This document shows positions 52,996 through 64,000 of a stretch of 64,000 nucleotides of DNA, piece after piece (position 1 is the first letter of the stretch; each line of letters starts with the position of its first letter). Made by a program: the position numbers and the translations under genes. Origin of the DNA: a virus (lineage: Duplodnaviria; Caudoviricetes); IMG/VR virus record IMGVR_UViG_3300027754_000035; one strand, written 5' to 3'. Below the pieces are notes generated by a model. It did no database searches and was not told the DNA's origin. It saw only the letters and a list, made by a program, of their open reading frames with translations.

Positions 52996-53031
52996 CAACA
53001 GAGTTAGCTACAAGAGGTTATTAACTGAAAG

Positions 53032-53108
53032 TGGTGGGCCCTGTCGGATTTGAACCGACAACCAGTTTTTTATGAGAAAACCGCTCTAACCAATTGAGCT
53101 AAGGGCCC
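53032..53108 (-). tRNA. tRNA-Ile2 (CAT, lysidine type)
   Basis: Cloverleaf GGGCCCT...GGGCCC-A-CCA; loop CTCATAA; close to E. coli ileX architecture. Confidence 0.85.
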
Positions 53109-53113
53109 TGAAA

Positions 53114-53188
53114 TGGGGAGCGGGTCCGAACTTTGCATTTCGCCTTCTGATCTGGACGACCAGCGTGCTCTCTTTACACTTGACCCGC
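53114..53188 (-). ncRNA. Degenerate tRNA-Gly(TCC)-like RNA
   Basis: Acceptor GCGGGTC/GACCCGC, U73, D and anticodon stems intact; loop CGTCCAG (G33) and no TTC T-loop. Confidence 0.6.
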
Positions 53189-53296
53189 ATTAAAAATTTG
53201 CAAGACTTACGAGTATCTTGCTGCCCTTTGAAAACTGAAGCCTAGTTGATCATTTCCAGACTGGGGTACTATGAGGTAGCTATCCTCAACAACCTC

Positions 53297-53324
53297 ACTA
53301 TATACCACAATTCGGAACTGTCAA
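53297..53324 (-). promoter_or_regulatory. Sigma70-like promoter, 16-nt spacer
   Basis: TTGACA-N16-TATAGT. Confidence 0.7.
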
Positions 53325-53354
53325 CAACAATAATAACTATGTATATGTAGAACT

Positions 53355-54209
53355 ATGAATTTCAAAAATACTGATATAATCGTGGTAAATCTTGTGAATC
53401 ATGATTTTCCACTGTTTCGCAAATTTTTGATCAATAATCATCAACATTTCAACAAAATTCATTATGTTGTGAATGGACCAGGATATCAGTTTAATAATAC
53501 CGAATCATACAATTATTTGGATGTGGTCAAAAGAAGCTTACCATTCGCAGATATTGTGTATGCATACCACGAAGATATTGATCATAGCAAACCCACAGAT
53601 CCCAGATCTTATTCAACAAATTTAGCACTGGATCGCAGCACCAGTGAATCTGTGTTGTTTCTGGAACCAGACGTGATCATTGGCAACATGGACTACCTTT
53701 TGAATTTGCCTGATACGTTTGACTACGTGGCACATTGTGAGGATAGTACGTATAGACTGTCACCATCTTTGATTTGGGCAAAACGTCATTTGATTGATGC
53801 CACATCTCGACAGTTTTTGTATGGTCACAATTTCCCATTTATTCGTAAATTGGTTGAACCACCTGAAAGCAGCACTCCAATTGCTGATCGAATTCGATAT
53901 TTCCCTGGACCAATTGGTGCCGATCACTTTGATTTTTTCACGGGTGAATTGTTGGGATTGAGCACCAATGCACATTTTATCAACCATCGATCATTTGATT
54001 TTTGGCATATGGGTGCAGTCATTCAAACAATGCATCTATTTAGATGTGGCGTATATGAATCAAATGGTGTACCCATATACAATTATCCCATGATGATTAA
54101 TTATCTACAACGCACATTGGATTGTGGTGTTGAACTGGACGATAGATATATAAAAGAATGTACCGCACATATTCAAAATATGAATGCGGTACTACAAGCT
54201 TTGGCTTGA
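53355..54209 (+). CDS. Putative GT-A glycosyltransferase-like protein within the tRNA cluster, opposite strand
   Basis: DFPLFRK; VLFLEPDV at the DXD position; paralog of 35694..36632. Confidence 0.55.
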   Translation: MNFKNTDIIVVNLVNHDFPLFRKFLINNHQHFNKIHYVVNGPGYQFNNTESYNYLDVVKRSLPFADIVYAYHEDIDHSKPTDPRSYSTNLALDRSTSESVLFLEPDVIIGNMDYLLNLPDTFDYVAHCEDSTYRLSPSLIWAKRHLIDATSRQFLYGHNFPFIRKLVEPPESSTPIADRIRYFPGPIGADHFDFFTGELLGLSTNAHFINHRSFDFWHMGAVIQTMHLFRCGVYESNGVPIYNYPMMINYLQRTLDCGVELDDRYIKECTAHIQNMNAVLQALA

Positions 54210-54215
54210 TTAAAA

Positions 54216-54300
54216 TGGTAGCCGCAGAGGGACTTGAACCCCCAAGCTGTTAAGCGACAGATTTTGAATCTGTAGTGTTTGCCAATTCCACCATGCGGCC
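54216..54300 (-). tRNA. tRNA-Leu (CAA)
   Basis: Class II cloverleaf, ACAGA-TTCAAAA-TCTGT, A73, CCA. Confidence 0.9.
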
Positions 54301-54331
54301 ATTAAAAGTCAAAAAACAACTAAAAAATTTG

Positions 54332-54414
54332 TGGGTATTGAAAGATTCGAACTTTCAATGCGGATATAAAGTGACCTGTTATATTCCGCTACTACTCCAA
54401 GTAGACACATACCC
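54332..54414 (-). ncRNA. tRNA-like RNA with an extended 10-bp anticodon arm and 9-nt loop
   Basis: Acceptor GGGTAT/ATACCC; perfect T-arm GAAAG-TTCGAAT-CTTTC; arm GCGGA(A)TATAA/TTATATCCGC. Confidence 0.65.
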
Positions 54415-54424
54415 ATAAAATTGT

Positions 54425-54589
54425 AGACCGTGGTGGGATTGGATCACCCACAACTAGTTTCAAGGCTGGTCAAGCTATATCTAGCACCCGTCTGACAGAC
54501 ACGATTTGATTCAACTACACTTGGAAACCACTCCAAGTAACGTACTTCGTGCGGCCCATCATCCGTATGTCTAATTCCATTACACGGTC
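54425..54589 (-). ncRNA. 165-nt tRNA-like RNA with a large structured insert
   Basis: 7-bp acceptor GACCGTG/CACGGTC, D-like ATG-GAATTAGA-CAT, T-like GTGGG/CCCAC, internal hairpins. Confidence 0.6.
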
Positions 54590-54593
54590 AAAG

Positions 54594-54685
54594 TGGTAGT
54601 CTCATGCAGAATCGAACTGCCCAGCACCCCAATCTAGGGATTATAGTCGTTATAAGCGACCCCATGCACCTTACATCTTGAGACT
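54594..54685 (-). tRNA. tRNA with TAT (Ile AUA) anticodon and long variable arm
   Basis: AGTCTCA/TGAGACT-A-CCA; GGTCG-CTTATAA-CGACT; ~20-nt variable region. Confidence 0.78.
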
Positions 54686-54693
54686 ATTAAAAT

Positions 54694-54780
54694 TGGTAGC
54701 GGGAGAGGGATTTGAACCCCCGAGGCACTAAGGCACCACGTTATGAGCGTGGCCAGATACCGGACTTCTGACATCCCGCA
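54694..54780 (-). tRNA. tRNA (CAT) with 1:72 mismatch and long variable region
   Basis: TGCGGGA/TCCCGCT-A-CCA; CCACG-CTCATAA-CGTGG; canonical T-arm. Confidence 0.78.
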
Positions 54781-54909
54781 GTCCATAAATTTTCAAAAAA
54801 AACAGTGATTAGGTTAACCCCAACATCCATATGTTACGTTCTATATTTCGTCCACAAAGAATGCCTTCTTTGTATCGCCGATTTATATCTTTGTTGGCTA
54901 ATCAAAAAT

Positions 54910-54983
54910 TGGTTGCGGATGGAGGAATTGAACCTCCAGCTTCAGCTTATGAAACTGACGAGTTACCGTTACTCTAACCCGCA
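54910..54983 (-). tRNA. tRNA-Met (CAT)
   Basis: TGCGGGT/ATCCGCA-A-CCA; TCAGT-TTCATAA-GCTGA. Confidence 0.85.
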
Positions 54984-55003
54984 ATTGTAAAAGAACAAAA
55001 AAT

Positions 55004-55158
55004 TGGTCCGACTGTTTTTTATTGAATCCTAATCCAGTCGGACGATTAGGATACCATGACTCATCCCCGCAACCAAGAAGTTTTTTAAGAGAACTTCCAA
55101 CTCTAGGGGCATTTTGGTTATTAACCCTCCACCAGACCGTTTCTTTTAAGCAACGGAC
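55004..55158 (-). ncRNA. Structured ~155-nt RNA ending in ACCA with interlocked 9-bp stems
   Basis: a-b-a'-linker-b' arrangement at 55006-55052; two upstream hairpins with CTTAAAA loops. Confidence 0.5.
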
Positions 55159-55166
55159 AAACAAAA

Positions 55167-55241
55167 TGGTAGTCCATAGGAGAATCGAACTCCTCTCTCC
55201 GCCTTGAAAGGGCAGCGTCCTAACCGATAGACGAATAGACC
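55167..55241 (-). tRNA. tRNA-Glu (TTC)
   Basis: CTGCC-CTTTCAA-GGCGG; CCA encoded. Confidence 0.9.
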
Positions 55242-55248
55242 ATTAAAT

Positions 55249-55326
55249 TGGTGGATCGGGTGGGACTTGAACCCACGACCAATCGGTTAAAAGCCGATTG
55301 CTCTAAACCAACTGAGCTACCGATCC
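55249..55326 (-). tRNA. tRNA-Lys (TTT)
   Basis: GGATCGG/CCGATCC-A-CCA; ATCGG-CTTTTAA-CCGAT. Confidence 0.92.
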
Positions 55327-55338
55327 ATTATAAATTGT

Positions 55339-55455: not shown

Positions 55456-55483
55456 ACTATACCACAACTTTTCACACTGTCAA
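55456..55483 (-). promoter_or_regulatory. Sigma70-like promoter of the tRNA cluster, 16-nt spacer
   Basis: TTGACA-N16(TGTGG)-TATAGT. Confidence 0.78.
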
Positions 55484-56573: not shown

Positions 56574-57038
56574 TCAACCCAATGTAGATTCATATTCTTC
56601 CAGAGTTAATCCCTTTTTGGGCCACTTGTTTTCGGAAATCATACGAATTCGACGTTCGTTGGCAATTTTAATTGCACCTTCTGCTCCTTTATCGGTACAA
56701 ATGAAAAAATTGTAGTAACCTGTGGTAATATATTTACCATCACCGGGAGAATCCAATACAAAGTCGATGTCAGCATATGAGTTTTCATCGGTGGTTCTGC
56801 CAACTTCATCGTTTTCCACTTCATCGGTATTACCGTCAACATCCATTTTTATCGAATAACCACGATAGCCAATTGGTGCAATCAACTCGGTCATGATTTG
56901 CCAAGTAACAACCCTTGCAGCCTCATATTTGGTGGAGATTTGAGCAGCATATTCTGTTGCAAGATCTTTGTCTGCAAATACACCACGAACTCCGTAGTCG
57001 CTGTAATTACCCTGCGTTACTAAATAGATTTCTTTCAT
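56574..57038 (-). CDS. Hypothetical protein
   Basis: IYLVTQGNYSDYGVRGVF motif common in phages. Confidence 0.6.
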   Translation of the reverse strand: MKEIYLVTQGNYSDYGVRGVFADKDLATEYAAQISTKYEAARVVTWQIMTELIAPIGYRGYSIKMDVDGNTDEVENDEVGRTTDENSYADIDFVLDSPGDGKYITTGYYNFFICTDKGAEGAIKIANERRIRMISENKWPKKGLTLEEYESTLG

Positions 57039-57466
57039 AGTGTGTCCAACACGTCACGGGTGCTTACCATCAACGGCAGATTCTTAGCGGCGGGCAACGT
57101 ATACAGTGTCCAAGGAGAATGTTTGTGTGGTTCAGTGTCTATTGGAGTCTCTTTTAACTCGTCGGATAGTTGTAAAACAAACCATTGGGTAACATCACTT
57201 TTACCACCATTATGGTATGACACAATGCTTCTTTTGAATCGGTCCAAGTCCGTGACGTTGATTCCAGTTTCCTCTAACAGTTCACGTTGCATGGCATGTA
57301 CATCACTGGCATCAGTATCCTCAACCATACCGCCAGGACATGCATATTTGCCAGTTTGATATAAACCAAGTCGTTGACTCAACCAAATTTGTTTTTCAAC
57401 AATTGATTGATCAAATCCGTCAATCAATACACACGCTACACCAATTTTAATTTTTGTAGTATTCAT
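57035..57466 (-). CDS. Nudix hydrolase
   Basis: PGGMVE...AMQRELLEETG Nudix box. Confidence 0.85.
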   Translation of the reverse strand: MNTTKIKIGVACVLIDGFDQSIVEKQIWLSQRLGLYQTGKYACPGGMVEDTDASDVHAMQRELLEETGINVTDLDRFKRSIVSYHNGGKSDVTQWFVLQLSDELKETPIDTEPHKHSPWTLYTLPAAKNLPLMVSTRDVLDTL

Positions 57467-57470
57467 ATTA

Positions 57471-57689
57471 TTACTGAGGAAGTGTTTTTTTGTAATTGTA
57501 TTTTATATCTAGATTGATACTACACACAATTAGTCCAAAAGTCAAGAGCGAACTGGTATAGGTATGTCTAGAAGCAAATGCTTCACTATCATAAATGCTT
57601 GTGGGAAAATGCAATCGTATTCCCAAAAACAACCCACCAGCTTTTTTACAATGCCATTTGGGATAAATATCTAGATATTTTGTGGTCAT
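57471..57689 (-). CDS. Small hypothetical protein
   Basis: ORF track. Confidence 0.45.
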   Translation of the reverse strand: MTTKYLDIYPKWHCKKAGGLFLGIRLHFPTSIYDSEAFASRHTYTSSLLTFGLIVCSINLDIKYNYKKTLPQ

Positions 57690-57691
57690 AT

Positions 57692-58243
57692 TTACTTATA
57701 GTTTTGGTTGTAATAGTTTCTGTAAAACGCCATCACGATACCGCTAGTGGTTCCTACATTCAGTGATCGCACACTACCATATGCTTCAATGGTAACAATC
57801 TTCTTGCAGTTGTCAAGAATATACTTGCTCAAACCACACTGTTCTTCGCCAAAAACAAACAAAGGCTTGTTGTTAAGACCATAAAAAACATCGGGTTGAA
57901 ACAAATCAGCGGTCTTGTGACTATATTCTGGAATATTGTTCTCCACAGCAATCAATTCATACCCATTATCATCAATATACTCCATCAACTGCTCTTCTGT
58001 CTTAATATGCATTAAATTGGTGTAATGGTGAGTACCCACACTTCCCCTTCGATCCCAATTTTTACTGCCACCAACATACATCACTTGAGCGAAACCAAAA
58101 AAATTGGCATTGCGTACAAGTGTACTCAAATTGAAATCGCCATTTACATGCAACATAGCAACACCGGCACCAATACAAGTGGTGCTGCAATAATCCTTGA
58201 TTTGTTCAACCGTTTGTGTCTTCAAATGATCCAATACATTCAT
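57692..58243 (-). CDS. SpoU/TrmH-family RNA 2'-O-methyltransferase
   Basis: N..TLVRNA..FG, FVFGEEQCGL, RSLNV SPOUT motifs. Confidence 0.85.
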   Translation of the reverse strand: MNVLDHLKTQTVEQIKDYCSTTCIGAGVAMLHVNGDFNLSTLVRNANFFGFAQVMYVGGSKNWDRRGSVGTHHYTNLMHIKTEEQLMEYIDDNGYELIAVENNIPEYSHKTADLFQPDVFYGLNNKPLFVFGEEQCGLSKYILDNCKKIVTIEAYGSVRSLNVGTTSGIVMAFYRNYYNQNYK

Positions 58244-58249
58244 GATGTA

Positions 58250-58277
58250 ACTGTATCACCATTTTAGAGAAAGTCAA
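58250..58277 (-). promoter_or_regulatory. Sigma70-like promoter, 16-nt spacer
   Basis: TTGACT-N16-TACAGT. Confidence 0.55.
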
Positions 58278-58284
58278 CAAACAA

Positions 58285-58371
58285 TCTAATTGTATGAAAA
58301 TTAACATCTTTTGATTCTAATCCTATGAAAATTAACATACTGAGCAAAATTTTGGTTCTAATCCTATGAAA
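58285..58371. repeat. Three phased intergenic direct repeats, tctaat(cc/tg)tatgaaa(attaacat)
   Basis: Copies at 58285, 58316, 58357; spacing 31 and 41 bp. Confidence 0.85.
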
Positions 58372-58404
58372 TTCTGTTTTTGTATCGTGGCGTTGGACAC
58401 TACG

Positions 58405-58965
58405 TTATGCCGTCAACCATTTCTTTTTTCTTGCTTCGGTTTTCTTGATCAATTTATCGTAGAACACCACAGCTTCGCTTTTGAGTTTGGCAATCCATTT
58501 GTCCTGGGACAGCTTTGTATTGCAAGCCTGCATAAAGTTTTGCATGTTCTTGATCTGGAGTTGACCCACGCCAAGGTTTTGAATCTGTAGGTGGTCCCAA
58601 TTCAATTCGTAGACATTCAATACACTGATGCTGGTAATCTGCTTGGTTTCACTGTTGTAGCCTACAAACACGTAATACAACGGTTTGTCAAGCTTAATCA
58701 AGCGATCAATACTGATCAAATTGGGCATTTTGAACTTTAATGCGGCGTCGCTGGTCTTTACGTCAACATAACAACCATCAACCGTCACGTCTTCAATGCT
58801 TCTGCGACTGCGAGCGGGTTTGACGTTATTGAAATTGGATTTGATGATTTCAACACAGTCAGCCTCAATCTTGTCGGCAATACCACGCTGTTGCAGTCCA
58901 GACGATTCAGGAAATGCTAGATTTGTGGATAGACACCGTTGAATTTTATTTTTGATGTCACTCAC
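58405..58965 (-). CDS. PD-(D/E)XK nuclease, type II restriction endonuclease-like
   Basis: SIEDVTV...VDVKT...MPNLISIDRL...QLQI. Confidence 0.55.
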   Translation of the reverse strand: MSDIKNKIQRCLSTNLAFPESSGLQQRGIADKIEADCVEIIKSNFNNVKPARSRRSIEDVTVDGCYVDVKTSDAALKFKMPNLISIDRLIKLDKPLYYVFVGYNSETKQITSISVLNVYELNWDHLQIQNLGVGQLQIKNMQNFMQACNTKLSQDKWIAKLKSEAVVFYDKLIKKTEARKKKWLTA

Positions 58966-59942
58966 ACAAACAATTCGCTGACACTTTCGTTGTTGTGAAT
59001 ACTGTTGATAGCCTTGGCAAACAAATTGCTAACGTCCAATGACTTGATGTTGGTCGGCTTGTACGCCAATTTCCACCAGTGATTCACCGTGGAACTATGT
59101 ACAAATTCATCAATAGACGCATTTTGCTCAATCACATTGGGTCGGGGCATAGCGTTGGAAAGACGTTCCATGCCAGTGTCAGTGAAACATCCATGCGTCA
59201 CAGCACAAACTACCTTTGTTGCACCGTTCTTCTTACATGCGTCAGCGGCCTGGATGAGGGTGCCACACGATTCTGTTAGGTCATCAATGATAAACACCGT
59301 CTTGCCAGATACATCACCTGAAATGCTTTGCAATTCAACTTTGTCATCACCCACACGTTTCTTTGAAATGAATCCAAAGTCACACTTCAAATAGGAAGCA
59401 TACTTCTCTGCTCGTTTGACTGCACCAACGTCAGGAGCCATGATAATTATGTCTTTTGCGTCAAGTTGAAGAGACTTGATATATTCAATCAACACGGGTT
59501 CAAACGTCAAATGGTCAAACGGAAGGTTGGTGAATCCACCCACCTGAGGACTGTGCAAATCCATCGTCACCACTCGGTCAATGCCACTGGCTTCAAATAG
59601 ATCCAATACGAGCTTGGCACTAATCGGTACCCTGCTTTTGTCTTTACGGTCCTGCCGGGCATAACCAAAATAAGGAACAACAGCGGTGATACGATCAGCA
59701 CTGGCACGACGTGCTGCGTCTGCCATGACCAACAGTTGCATCAGGTTTTCGTTGGCAGGTTGAGTGATTCCCTGAATGAGGAACACGTCGCTACCACGAA
59801 TGTTTTCCTTGAACTGACAGTATGATTCGCCGGAGGGAAAATTGTGATGATAAATCTCGCCCAACTTGGTGAACAGATTGTCTGCAACTCGTTGTGCGAG
59901 AGGAAGATTGCTGGTTCCACTAAAGATTTTTAGGTTGCTCAT
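58962..59942 (-). CDS. prs: Ribose-phosphate pyrophosphokinase
   Basis: ENIRGSDVF, PYFGYARQDRK, TMDLHS, APDVGA, IIDDLTESCGT. Confidence 0.95.
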   Translation of the reverse strand: MSNLKIFSGTSNLPLAQRVADNLFTKLGEIYHHNFPSGESYCQFKENIRGSDVFLIQGITQPANENLMQLLVMADAARRASADRITAVVPYFGYARQDRKDKSRVPISAKLVLDLFEASGIDRVVTMDLHSPQVGGFTNLPFDHLTFEPVLIEYIKSLQLDAKDIIIMAPDVGAVKRAEKYASYLKCDFGFISKKRVGDDKVELQSISGDVSGKTVFIIDDLTESCGTLIQAADACKKNGATKVVCAVTHGCFTDTGMERLSNAMPRPNVIEQNASIDEFVHSSTVNHWWKLAYKPTNIKSLDVSNLFAKAINSIHNNESVSELFV

Positions 59943-59953
59943 ATGTTCAAATA

Positions 59954-60259
59954 CTATGACTCACTACGATTTTTCAATCGCTCGTCGGAGATCGGAACCA
60001 CACCTTTGCCATTGGTGATCCATTGAATCAACTGATAAACACCAAATGCTAACAACATGAGTGGAATCATAACCCACCACAACACAAAGAACATACAGAC
60101 TGCGAACCAAAAAATTACCTTATCAATTGGCAGGTTATTTTTGGTCCAATACGTATCTTTATTATAGGATTTAGCGGTTAGCCAATGGCGTTTGGTGTTG
60201 AATTTGACCAACGTAAGAAAAATGACGGTTGGAACGAGAAAGTATAAAAGAAAGCTCAT
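59954..60259 (-). CDS. Membrane hypothetical protein
   Basis: Two to three hydrophobic segments. Confidence 0.6.
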   Translation of the reverse strand: MSFLLYFLVPTVIFLTLVKFNTKRHWLTAKSYNKDTYWTKNNLPIDKVIFWFAVCMFFVLWWVMIPLMLLAFGVYQLIQWITNGKGVVPISDERLKNRSES

Positions 60260-60289
60260 AGTGTTATTCTAATCGGTTTTGTTAAAATG

Positions 60290-60538
60290 TCAATCTTTTT
60301 TTGAATTGTCTTTGTGGGCGGAACTCTTGAAAATAAATCCACACAGCACGTTGAGACCCCATGCGTGTAGAAAATCAATTTCCTTGAGACCAAACTGGTA
60401 TGGAACCACATAGTTCCACAACCACATGACTGGCAGTGCAAGCAACGCACTGATTCCAATAATCAACATCGCAATACCAATCAGTGTGCCAATCAGAGTT
60501 ATAATAATTTTCGCCACGTCCAGAATAATTTTCATCAT
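60290..60538 (-). CDS. Membrane hypothetical protein
   Basis: LPVMWLWNYVVP.QFGL.EIDF..AWGL motif. Confidence 0.65.
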   Translation of the reverse strand: MMKIILDVAKIIITLIGTLIGIAMLIIGISALLALPVMWLWNYVVPYQFGLKEIDFLHAWGLNVLCGFIFKSSAHKDNSKKD

Positions 60539-60621
60539 ATATTTACAACAGTTTTAGGTTTTTTGCCTTTCCTCATGTTGAGGTCTTTACGAATTACGAT
60601 AATTTGTTTGGCTTTGTTCAT
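60535..60621 (-). pseudogene. Truncated peptidyl-tRNA hydrolase 2 (Pth2) remnant, 28 codons
   Basis: MNKAKQIIVIRKDLNMRKGK is the Pth2 N-terminal signature; the frame then stops. Confidence 0.65.
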
Positions 60622-60713
60622 GACTCAATCTCTGTTATATAGATTAATAATGTATATTGTTGCTATATATAGCCAATATTATAAACATTGCCATTTCAAT
60701 TACTTCTTTGGTA

Positions 60714-61064
60714 TTATTGTCCATATGTTTCCCGCCAGTGTTTGTTTGGAACGCCTCGTTTATCTGCTACAAATTGTGCAACACCATCATACTTTCGTTG
60801 TTTATACAATTCATACAAAATTGGCAATTCACCGTAGGTTACAGATTCAGCATCTGAACAGGGTACTAAATAATCATTTATATTTATACACAACCCCAAA
60901 CATTCTTTACCATCGTGTTTGCTAACTTCCGAGGTTACGCCCAATATGCATTCATCCAGTAGATATGCTGCCATGTTCTCATGATCAGCAACTATTTTGC
61001 CATTGATATTGTACCAATATGTACGTTCAATTGTCGTCGTTTCTGTAACATCGTTGTTTATCAT
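60714..61064 (-). CDS. Hypothetical protein
   Basis: ORF track. Confidence 0.55.
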   Translation of the reverse strand: MINNDVTETTTIERTYWYNINGKIVADHENMAAYLLDECILGVTSEVSKHDGKECLGLCININDYLVPCSDAESVTYGELPILYELYKQRKYDGVAQFVADKRGVPNKHWRETYGQ

Positions 61065-61074
61065 AATTTAATTA

Positions 61075-61302
61075 TTGATTAAAAAACCAACTAAAAGTCT
61101 GCTTGATGATAACCATATTGACTTCATGGTAAATCAACCATTTTACCCATGTGATAGGAGCAAAGAAATAATCCACGATGCTCCAGAAGAGGCTGTTATG
61201 AATGGTATAACCAATCATTGCGGTTGCGAGTGTGAAAAGAAAATAAATGATTCGTCCAAGTGTGTTCATAACTCCGAGTGTCTTCATATTTTTACCAATT
61301 AA
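61075..61302 (-). CDS. Membrane hypothetical protein
   Basis: Two hydrophobic segments. Confidence 0.6.
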
Positions 61303-61549
61303 TATACAATTTATCCCAACTATCATTGTCTCGTTGATCATATCCAGTATCACGTCTAACAACATATCCGTCATTTTTGAGTTGGACCATAACAGACTCA
61401 ACAAGATTTTCTGCTGGGCACTTAACATTTACTCCATTAATTCCTCTCTTTGCTGCTTGTTCAATAGTTTTGTATAGATTTTTGAGATATGTAATTTTTT
61501 CCGAAGAAAAAGCAGTGTCAGTAAGTTTACGTGCGTCAGATGCTTTCAT
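61292..61549 (-). CDS. Hypothetical protein
   Basis: After TTGACT-N16-TACTAT (61556-61583). Confidence 0.6.
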   Translation of the reverse strand: MKASDARKLTDTAFSSEKITYLKNLYKTIEQAAKRGINGVNVKCPAENLVESVMVQLKNDGYVVRRDTGYDQRDNDSWDKLYINW

Positions 61550-61627
61550 AGATTTATAGTACCCTAGTTTTTCAGAAAGTCAAGAGCGGTTTTTTGAAAA
61601 GGATTACCGCAAACCAGTTTGTGTAAC

Positions 61628-63025
61628 TTACAGAGCAGCATTCGTGCGAATGGTGGCAAAATCAATTTCCTTGACCAACACACCATTCGTAAACACAACC
61701 TTCAAATAATCCTCGCCGGGATCATTCTCACCAACAGTGACGAACTTGCCATCAACCTTGGTCAACTTGAGCTTGCCCTTCTTGGATGCCTTGCTCTGAT
61801 CCTTGGGATTCTTGAAAATATCGTACCACTGTCCATTACGATACTGTGCCGAACTCTTGAAAGCACACCGCTGAGTATCACGATTCACCTTCTGCAACAA
61901 CCCGCCACCCATACCGAAACAAGCAATATTCTCAGTGGCAAATTTAGCCTTGGTAACAGCAAACAAAATCTTCTTGATACCATCCAAGTCAATTCCATCA
62001 CCCCACAACACTCGCACAGCCGGATTGATCAACTTATATCCCTTGCTGTTCACGGTGCCACCATAGTTGTCCCAAAGTGACTTCATAATCCAAACCATTT
62101 CCTCCTCTGGAGTCTGATGGGTAGGAGTGATACTGTCAGGACGTACAACGAATGGACCACCCTTGCGATTCAAAATACGATCCTTGAACACCTTACCAAC
62201 AATGTTGTCCACAAAGTTGTAGATGTCGTAACTGTCAGCCACACACGATAGAATACCAGTAGGATATTCATTCAACAAACTCTCAACAACCTGCTGTTCG
62301 CCGTCCACGCCAAGAGCCGTCATAACACTGTGTTCAGTAGCAGCCACACTGTATGCCAAACCATCAAGATTAGCATTGTAGTAGTTCATCGCCACTTCCA
62401 TAGCAACCACAGTGTCAGTTCCAAGGAAGTTAATCAAATGAGCAGCACCACCAATACCAGCCGTCTCATAAGAGCTTGCGCCCCTGAAACCAAAATCGTG
62501 GAGTCCGAAGTTGAGAAGTCCACCGTCACTTGTCAACTCAAGATATTCCTTGATATTCACCTTCACTTCACGGGAAAGTGCCGCCACCGTCAGTGGATAC
62601 CAAACCTGAGATAGTAGACTCTCAAGAAAATTAGTAAGCCAGAAACACTTACTGTCCGTGTTTTCAACAGTCATCAACACATTGTTGATAGGAACAACCG
62701 TACCCTCCTCAACAGCCTTGATAACAATGGGAAGCCTGCCTTCCAAACTATTGAGAATATACTCCCAACCTTCACGGTTGAAATACTTCTCGTCACCAAA
62801 ATGAGCCTTGCACAACTTGGCAGCGTTCTCAATCTTTTCACGGGTCACAACCACACCAATTAGATGGTTCTTAATAATATACTGAAGTCCAAAGAACGGA
62901 GTTTCAGCAAACTTGGAACCCTTGCGACACTCAAAATAACTATATACAATTTCGGTGTTCTTGGGATACTGATTCCAGTGATTCAACTTGTAACTATCGG
63001 TCGTCAAACAAATGTTCTTATTCAT
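61628..63025 (-). CDS. nadV: Nicotinamide phosphoribosyltransferase (NAMPT)
   Basis: TDSYK..H..QYP, SYFECR, LHDFGFRG, AATEHS, VADSYD, RPDS, GDG, GGGLLQ..NRDT, SKKG. Confidence 0.93.
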   Translation of the reverse strand: MNKNICLTTDSYKLNHWNQYPKNTEIVYSYFECRKGSKFAETPFFGLQYIIKNHLIGVVVTREKIENAAKLCKAHFGDEKYFNREGWEYILNSLEGRLPIVIKAVEEGTVVPINNVLMTVENTDSKCFWLTNFLESLLSQVWYPLTVAALSREVKVNIKEYLELTSDGGLLNFGLHDFGFRGASSYETAGIGGAAHLINFLGTDTVVAMEVAMNYYNANLDGLAYSVAATEHSVMTALGVDGEQQVVESLLNEYPTGILSCVADSYDIYNFVDNIVGKVFKDRILNRKGGPFVVRPDSITPTHQTPEEEMVWIMKSLWDNYGGTVNSKGYKLINPAVRVLWGDGIDLDGIKKILFAVTKAKFATENIACFGMGGGLLQKVNRDTQRCAFKSSAQYRNGQWYDIFKNPKDQSKASKKGKLKLTKVDGKFVTVGENDPGEDYLKVVFTNGVLVKEIDFATIRTNAAL

Positions 63026-63084
63026 AATCTTTTTCTTTCTGTTGTAATGATTTTTATCTGTACCTTAATCTTTACCACTTTTCT

Positions 63085-63113
63085 AGTTTACCTCAACTTT
63101 TACACAAAGTCAA
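63085..63113 (-). promoter_or_regulatory. Sigma70-like promoter for nadV, 17-nt spacer
   Basis: TTGACT-N17-TAAACT. Confidence 0.55.
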
Positions 63114-64000
63114 GGCATCTCTCCGTCCTTATTAAGTTGGAAAAACTTGTCTTGCAACTCACGATTTCCACCAAACTTATCATTGAACATATCCACCAAT
63201 ACATGATGCAGAGGTTCAATGTTGTCCTTGGTCAATCCAGTTCCAATAGGCACCCATTTAACCTCAGCAACATCGTCAGATCCTTCTGGCTTGCCGTAGA
63301 TATACTTTGCCAAAAACAACGCAGTCTTGATTTTGTCCTGTTCTCCACGATAACGCCAGTCATCAATCAATGTTGAACCAAGATACGTGATGTCATCAAC
63401 TTCTACGCTTGCCTCCTCCGTCACTTCACGTTTGGCATCAGCCTCAAGACTAGTGCTACGAGGATCACTGAATCCACCGATGAATCGCCACTTCTTTTCT
63501 TCTGGCTTACGTGCCAACAGAATCTCACCCTTGTCATTTACAACAGCGATGTCAACTGTCTGAAATGCCGTAGGATAACGATATGCCGTTGCAGCAATCA
63601 TACCAGCACGATAGTCAGCAGTTGGAGGATAGTTGTTACACACACGACGGCGAACCTCAGTACCACTAATGAAGGTGGTAGCTTCAAGTTCACACACGTT
63701 GTACTTGCCACTGTATGCTTTGAGGAAACTGTCACGACTACCATACAAAGTAACCGATTGCATTGGTAGCAGTTGTTCACCGATTTGCTTGTCAAGACTT
63801 TTGCTCCAAGCAGCATCCGATGGATTGTCGTTGATGTAGTGAACCTCCACATTTGGAAACTTGTCGGCGATCATAGCACGACGTGCCCGATAGTCAAGAG
63901 GATTTGAAGTGGTGTTACGGATGATGCTGTTACCCAAGAAGAGAAGCACACGATCATGCTTTTGGATTACAGAGTTAATGAGGTCAATGTGTGCCTCATG
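63110..64000 (-). CDS. Bifunctional NMN adenylyltransferase / ADP-ribose Nudix hydrolase (NadM-Nudix, NatV-like), 5' truncated by the window edge
   Basis: Frame is open to 64000 with HEAH (HIGH-like), NPLDY..R, YGSRDSF, ISGT; Nudix GGF...LEADAKREVTEEA. Confidence 0.9.
   Translation of the reverse strand, partial: HEAHIDLINSVIQKHDRVLLFLGNSIIRNTTSNPLDYRARRAMIADKFPNVEVHYINDNPSDAAWSKSLDKQIGEQLLPMQSVTLYGSRDSFLKAYSGKYNVCELEATTFISGTEVRRRVCNNYPPTADYRAGMIAATAYRYPTAFQTVDIAVVNDKGEILLARKPEEKKWRFIGGFSDPRSTSLEADAKREVTEEASVEVDDITYLGSTLIDDWRYRGEQDKIKTALFLAKYIYGKPEGSDDVAEVKWVPIGTGLTKDNIEPLHHVLVDMFNDKFGGNRELQDKFFQLNKDGEMP

Follow-up and report, generated by a model that had tools for sequence, protein, structure and literature searches.

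An unannotated tRNA-shaped gene in a freshwater phage

What is an RNA gene that has the cloverleaf of a tRNA and an anticodon arm of twice the normal length, and what could it do for the phages that carry it? The question is raised by a locus, here called E83, in a 64,000-nt stretch of viral DNA (the window; IMG/VR record IMGVR_UViG_3300027754_000035) from a large freshwater phage genome with NAD-salvage genes, a helicase and virion proteins, to which records of up to 296-356 kb are related. E83 lies inside a minus-strand tRNA array (~53030-55330), between a 168-nt tRNA-ended RNA (E168) and tRNA-Leu(CAA), and overlaps no ORF of at least 60 aa (Table 1). ARAGORN does not call it at default settings, and an Rfam scan gave no match over it even at E <= 10, RF00005 included; at a lowered threshold (90%) ARAGORN calls a tRNA with a 13-nt intron and the anticodon UUA. 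E83 is a real element of this jumbo-phage tRNA array, and illustrates how standard tools miss such tRNA look-alike genes.

Table 1. Positions of E83, its parts and the adjoining features (window coordinates)
Feature	Position	Strand	Remarks
E83, tRNA-shaped RNA gene	54332..54414	-	83 nt, first G to discriminator N73; fold z = -4.13
E83 acceptor stem, 5' strand (6 nt)	54409..54414	-	pair probabilities 0.68-1.0
E83 D hairpin, 4 bp and 5-nt loop with elbow GG	54392..54404	-	pair probabilities 0.84-0.86
E83 doubled anticodon arm	54360..54389	-	10 bp, one bulged A; 9-nt loop 54378-54370, CAGGUCACU
E83 T-arm, canonical 7-nt T-loop	54339..54357	-	stem 5 bp, or 6 bp in the preferred register
E83 3' acceptor strand (54338-54333), N73 at 54332 (A here), CAA tail	54329..54338	-	
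E168, tRNA-ended RNA with long insert, upstream of E83	54422..54589	-	168 nt
tRNA-Leu(CAA), downstream of E83	54216..54300	-	
Sigma-70-type promoter-like site ahead of the tRNA array	55456..55483	-	11/12, extended -10; consensus match only

The predicted cloverleaf has a minimum free energy of -25.8 kcal/mol, matched by none of 200 shuffled sequences, and a significant fold is retained with the flanks included (z = -3.72). An earlier, sequence-only reading of the locus had described the middle arm as ten base pairs with a bulge and a 9-nt loop, which is borne out by the pairing of 54389-54379 with 54369-54360 and by the fold of this arm alone (z = -3.61). In the energy model two further pairs form inside the loop (probability 0.93-0.96), probably closing it to a GUCA tetraloop on a 12-bp arm. 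Just 2-3 nt separate the arm from the T-stem, leaving no variable arm, and the base of the D-stem is weak. The same reading had also called the acceptor and T-arm canonical; this holds for the T-loop but only in part for the acceptor, which in the 7/5 register carries a G7.A66 mismatch, otherwise enters a 6/6 helix, and is not followed by an encoded CCA. A 6-bp acceptor with a 6-bp T-stem is preferred by the energy model (-22.6 versus -21.5 kcal/mol for 7/5), and still gives a 12-bp top helix. The T-stem is common in ordinary phage tRNAs, and the idea that the 6/6 division defines a new cloverleaf class is weakened by the many ordinary tRNAs with U48 and A66 that can form the same extra pair. 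Given that all true homologues of E83 are identical, covariation, which had been proposed as a check, is unavailable, and it is folding energy and tRNA motifs that support the modelled fold.

Distribution and exchange between phages

Exact-pattern scans of viral and metagenome sequences identified 11 other contigs carrying E83, which together with the window were divided into lineages A (the window, L071), B (L033, L067, L085, L086) and C (L077, L079, L081, L087, L090, L091). All 82 positions up to C72 are identical in these 11 contigs, with variation confined to N73 and the flanks. Since nearby proteins of lineages A and C are 35-63% identical, such identity of E83 indicates recent exchange. 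E83 follows E168 in lineages A and B and is the first gene in lineage C, 41 nt after a promoter-like site; in the window, the promoter-like site ahead of the array is on sequence grounds the likely source of a transcript including E83. In every carrier a tRNA-Leu gene follows directly, represented by five different alleles, and the E83 block common to lineage C ends within a few bases of the two ends of this gene. Both sites also exist as empty alleles: E168 is joined straight to Leu(CAA) in L077, L091 and the complete relative G003, and the promoter leader straight to Leu(UAA) in G003 and L145, the latter two being devoid of E83. The two sites, their empty alleles and the absence from G003 therefore identify E83 as an accessory, gene-sized, mobile unit, which may be passed from phage to phage through recombination where the 5' ends of tRNA-Leu genes look alike. 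Alleles of tRNA genes are freely exchanged among these arrays, and lineages B and C share a protein at 98% identity.

Invariance was also compared with that of neighbouring genes. Variable sites in the same carriers number 11 of 164 in E168 versus 0 of 82 in E83 (Fisher p = 0.018), or p = 0.037 once the 17 positions fixed by the search pattern are removed (65 free nt), and at ~5% within-lineage divergence the chance of no change in these 65 nt in both lineage pairs is ~0.001, all of which are rough values because contigs of one lineage are not independent. A lake DNA contig of run X5, found independently, differs from the window at 15 positions over 54211-54597, none of them in E83. The long-armed CAU tRNA of the array is 99-100% identical between lineages A and B. 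Together, these findings point to a recently exchanged gene unit under selection. A very recent sweep would give the same picture of invariance, and either reading favours a selected unit; recent transfer could also come from hitch-hiking or a selfish cassette. The sequence-only reading had likewise proposed selection, on the strength of the perfect pairing. Its conclusion is supported, by the invariance and the gene-sized exchange, but its argument is not, since perfect pairing by itself does not demonstrate selection among invariant homologues.

Other roles were considered and rejected. For an antisense role, no complement of the loop or D-loop was found in the arrays beyond chance 7-mers. 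A minus-strand reading frame is open across E83, but would encode 31-35 aa with no ribosome-binding site seen, and a small peptide would leave the invariant third positions unexplained. A link to the ORF at 53355-54209 was also dismissed, as one carrier lacks this ORF, which has no family.

The 3' end and possible ancestry

E83 does not encode CCA, N73 being followed by CAA or CAG; among the ordinary tRNAs of these arrays 129 of 132 encode it. N73 itself is A in the window and G in lineage B. Over both ends of the acceptor, E83 matches the clade's tRNA-Leu(CAA) at 16 of 17 positions, and its four best matches among 998 tRNAs are all Leu. This suggests that E83 is a remodelled tRNA with a Leu-type acceptor, which may have arisen from, or recombined with, tRNA-Leu genes. 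The Leu-like acceptor may in turn explain the fixed position before tRNA-Leu.

Resemblances to tRNA-Asp were also observed. The D-loop octamer of E83 occurs in one of 1060 tRNAs, a phage tRNA-Asp that is also the top match of the E83 covariance model R3 among 100 loci, and the long arm has at its tip the GUC-A-C of tRNA-Asp loops (a loop present in 20 tRNA-Asp among the tRNAs collected), but with A32 and G33. Among 998 tRNAs the best match to the D-arm is likewise a phage tRNA-Asp. Because this match extends to 13 of 19 positions and eight other tRNAs reach 12 of 19, the statistically weak link to tRNA-Asp through the D-loop, the tip and G73 of lineage B is treated as a lead, not a result. The tip pattern, which might have suggested a mobile tip, was not found in other tRNA frames.

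Search for a wider family

Model R3 was run on 100 loci, ten virus records and 151 genomes of the phylum of G011, and recovered nothing above ordinary tRNAs (at most 36.5 bits, versus ~122 for true E83 copies). Within the scope of these searches and the pattern scans, no member of the E83 sequence family was found outside the carriers of lineages A, B and C. One stand-alone cloverleaf (z = -3.95) was identified in the Chitinophagaceae MAG UBA4407 (L120:6683-6778, plus strand), with a Leu-type acceptor similar to that of E83 and the T-arm of E83; its long arm is another one, with UAA in the terminal loop, and CCA is missing. It was not counted as a family member, given that the T-arm was fixed by the search pattern and is common in ordinary tRNAs, and that its score of 33.5 bits is in their range. 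With no copy in 400 related genomes it is a singleton among 401, and may possibly be either a relative of E83 or a parallel case.

Other elements of the array

The neighbourhood of E83 contains further unusual RNA genes. E168 has a Leu-like D-arm in which the usual GG is missing, carries a long structured insert and lacks CCA; it is conserved across lineages A, B and C and in G003, with changes that preserve the pairs. It occurs without E83, and the two are therefore not one unit; a 10-nt stretch in common between E168 and the E83 D-loop is probably due to chance. A tRNA-like element missed by ARAGORN (~53126-53190, minus strand) has an odd loop (C-G-UCC-A-G) and T-arm. It is 88-89% identical in lineage C and G003, with variable loops, scores weakly against YrlA (E 1.6), and folds no better than shuffled sequences over the part tested. 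Three different CAU tRNAs are present in the array, including one (54694-54780, minus strand) with a U1.U72 mismatch and a long variable arm, while a tRNA-Ile(UAU) with a long variable arm is encoded at 54594-54685 (minus strand); both types recur in relatives. A sub-threshold match to the wcaG RNA motif (55059-55166, minus strand; 31.7 bits versus a gathering score of 42) is conserved at 88-95% in lineages B, C and G003, and likely represents a further structured RNA. Elsewhere, sets of tRNA-Leu genes with short variable loops and either GGAAGGAG or GGGAGGAG in common as their D-loop were found in L058 (4930-6118) and L062 (6465-6717), both on the minus strand, alongside ordinary long-armed tRNA-Leu.

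Protein genes were also noted. The ORF at 53355-54209 (plus strand) lies antisense inside the array and encodes a 284-aa protein of no known family; it is accessory (absent in run X5), with 18 homologues and a faint glycosyltransferase lead. About 2.4 kb upstream of the array, a SpoU/TrmH-family RNA methyltransferase (57692-58243, minus strand) could modify phage tRNAs. The NAD-salvage cluster (57035-63949, minus strand) comprises nicotinamide phosphoribosyltransferase, ribose-phosphate pyrophosphokinase and two NUDIX proteins.

Alternative explanations

The sequence-only reading had also offered E83 as a tRNA with a tiny intron, i.e. a pre-tRNA from which 13 nt would be removed by a phage or host nuclease and ligase to leave a working tRNA. 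The relaxed ARAGORN call fits this explanation, as do the published tRNA introns of Lak phages (PMC6784885) and the related phage G003, which encodes a T4-type RNA ligase and has tRNAs with loop inserts of 30-51 nt, one with an empty allele in L145. These inserts, of 35, 51 and 30 nt, lie in the anticodon loops of the genes at L057:4333-4444 (plus strand), L056:9097-9222 and L056:8895-8997 (both minus strand), ~7 kb from the ligase gene. The first gene, which ARAGORN labels Lys, is read here as a CAU tRNA whose positions 34 and 35 are separated by a hairpin, and its empty allele occupies the same array place in L145. Removal of the 35- and 51-nt inserts restores textbook loops, and judged by sequence these genes are better tiny-intron candidates than E83. 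When all contiguous deletions in the E83 arm were enumerated, none gave Y32, U33 and R37 together on a 5-bp stem; the sole product with this combination needs a 4-bp stem and a 2-nt variable loop, and the intron called by ARAGORN leaves U37. Furthermore, no bulge-helix-bulge motif was seen in E83 by inspection, viral and metagenome scans gave no intron-less allele, and the spliced product would still be without CCA. Evidence of splicing was also sought in metatranscriptomes, where assembled RNA contigs of three studies cover E83 and cross the arm without a joint; such contigs include flanks and may represent precursor or DNA, are silent on processing and level, drop rare forms, and sample tRNA-sized RNA poorly. 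Two further observations in the RNA data, a shallow contig whose end falls exactly at 54333 and a lack of coverage over 53324-54133, are too weak to use. Neither a CCA-adding enzyme nor RtcB was found in five related records (two of them complete). We consider an intron in E83 very unlikely.

A more serious competitor, to which we give a limited but appreciable chance, is that E83 is a degenerate, functionless pseudo-tRNA which recently hitch-hiked with tRNA-Leu cassettes, its stems being explained by tRNA ancestry and by template-switch correction of near-palindromes. The lack of CCA, the G7.A66 mismatch, the weak D-stem base, the absence from G003 and L145 and the failure to find a distant family member would all be expected, as would the free exchange of tRNA alleles and the protein nearly identical between lineages B and C. 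Against this, the downstream tRNA-Leu varies where E83 does not, so that E83 is not riding on one Leu allele; E83 varies no more than a real tRNA does (the long-armed CAU tRNA), and less than E168; and the block shared between lineages is gene-sized. The constant position directly upstream of tRNA-Leu, combined with an intact top half and no CCA, could instead reflect a processing spacer, in which tRNA-shaped punctuation supplies an extra RNase P/RNase Z site that helps to release the downstream tRNA-Leu. Such a spacer has no need of an invariant 30-nt arm and tip, and the same tRNA-Leu positions exist without E83, making this improbable. The Leu-type acceptor, the GUC-A-C tip, the Asp-like D-loop and G73 in one lineage would be consistent with a charged carrier or sensor RNA, to which the host adds CCA and which LeuRS (A73, anticodon-blind) or AspRS (GUC tip, G73 in lineage B) charges for non-ribosomal use, and irregular tRNAs that are charged but unused in translation have been published (PMC5389517). 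N73, however, differs between lineages, the longer arm places GUC at a greater distance from the acceptor end, and the Asp resemblance is statistically weak. LeuRS and AspRS identity should not tolerate a change of N73, and of the explanations weighed here we regard this one as the most remote.

Comparison with known RNAs

With canonical tRNA (RF00005), E83 has in common the cloverleaf, the 12-bp top helix, the T-loop, the D-loop GG and a place in a tRNA operon. It differs in its 10-12-bp arm, the missing U33, the G7.A66 mismatch or 6/6 division, the 2-3-nt variable region and the lack of CCA, and a canonical 5-bp anticodon stem and 7-nt loop with Y32, U33 and R37 was not found (A32/G33 in the best register). 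Its nearest ordinary tRNAs are the clade's tRNA-Leu(CAA) and phage-type tRNA-Asp. In allo-tRNAs (Mukai et al. 2017, PMC5389517) the acceptor branch is divided 8/4 or 9/3 and the variable arm is long. They and irregular polycistronic tRNAs, some of which are not used in translation, resemble E83 in their re-divided 12-bp acceptor branch and short D-loop (PMC5389517); allo-tRNAs, however, have a usable anticodon loop, whereas E83 has none, nor a variable arm, and is divided 6/6 or mismatched 7/5. The intron tRNAs of Lak phages (PMC6784885) and the G003 insert genes similarly carry extra, strongly conserved sequence in the anticodon arm of jumbo-phage tRNAs, but in the G003 Asn and CAU tRNAs, which have CCA, a textbook loop returns once the insert is taken out. 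YrlA (RF02553) is also a non-decoding RNA that keeps D, T and acceptor features, but its model gave no match to E83 at E <= 10 and no Ro60-binding stem was seen. On the features tested, E83 thus does not qualify as a canonical tRNA, an allo-tRNA, a YrlA RNA or an intron-containing pre-tRNA.

Closest in kind are RNA C and RNA D, which are encoded within the tRNA cluster of phage T4 and whose ends resemble those of a tRNA. RNA C and RNA D are stable and, like E83, small, non-coding phage RNAs of unknown function (PMC9697503), and E83 is likewise a non-decoding RNA gene inside a phage tRNA cluster, a likeness of kind and not of sequence family. E83 differs in being near tRNA size, with a full cloverleaf in which only the anticodon arm is doubled, and a search of 50,697 annotated phage records at E <= 10 gave no match, annotated RNA C and D included. 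The nearest counterparts of E83 are therefore the unexplained small RNAs found in phage tRNA clusters, to which it has no sequence homology: the kind is long known, and the example is unusually small and clean.

A proposed role for E83

Among the readings considered we favour, as reasonably probable, that E83 is a selected, non-decoding tRNA mimic that is probably uncharged. An anticodon arm that is at least five pairs too long and without U33 cannot place a triplet in the decoding centre. The view of the sequence-only reading that the arm is too long for the ribosomal A site is in keeping with this, decoding being implausible for an RNA with an arm of twice the normal length, no U33 and no CCA, and E83 would thus stay off the ribosome. 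That it is probably not charged is suggested by the lack of CCA and the variable N73. RNase P can measure a 12-bp helix from the elbow and release a 5' G. Given that the 12-bp acceptor/T helix and the D/T elbow are kept, E83 may be co-transcribed with the tRNAs of the array and excised from the transcript by the host's RNase P and 3' nucleases. The proposal that it mimics both elbow and acceptor holds in part: the elbow (D-loop GG, T-loop) is intact and invariant, but the acceptor end is the sole variable part (N73 A or G, no CCA). Conservation of the body and arm, and not of the acceptor end, points to a partner that reads elbow and arm, and E83 could bind a tRNA-handling protein of the host, competing as an RNA that is uncleavable or unusable.

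As to the identity of this partner, a tRNA-targeting defence nuclease, for which E83 would act as an anti-defence decoy, is our leading guess from context, tentatively held; it leads because phage tRNA counter-measures are often directed at such systems. The sponge for tRNA-sensing defences offered by the sequence-only reading is likewise possible. A slightly weaker candidate is a synthetase or modifying enzyme, and another partner might be involved. A PEP-CTERM-like protein in L033 and cytochrome c-like genes in G004 may hint at a Verrucomicrobiota host. That viral tRNAs might act by competition has been suggested (PMC12409363), but in the cases tested phage tRNAs overcame nucleases through replacement of the cut tRNA and not as decoys (PMC12445682), and no paper on such an RNA decoy was found in the open-access literature. 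In its fullest and rather doubtful form, E83 would be a dedicated RNA anti-defence factor, an uncharged decoy whose doubled arm keeps an anticodon-like tip from a host anticodon nuclease while the enzyme is engaged by its body, and whose recent sweep reached distant freshwater jumbo phages. If true, this would provide a minimal, easily tested case of protection by competition and not by replacement of the cut tRNA. At 83 nt, E83 can be made and tested directly against PARIS, PrrC, retron PtuAB, OLD and Schlafen, as well as with RNase P, CCA enzyme and synthetases. A positive result would establish RNA decoys among the counter-defences of phages; E83 may otherwise simply add to the number of unannotated tRNA look-alikes.
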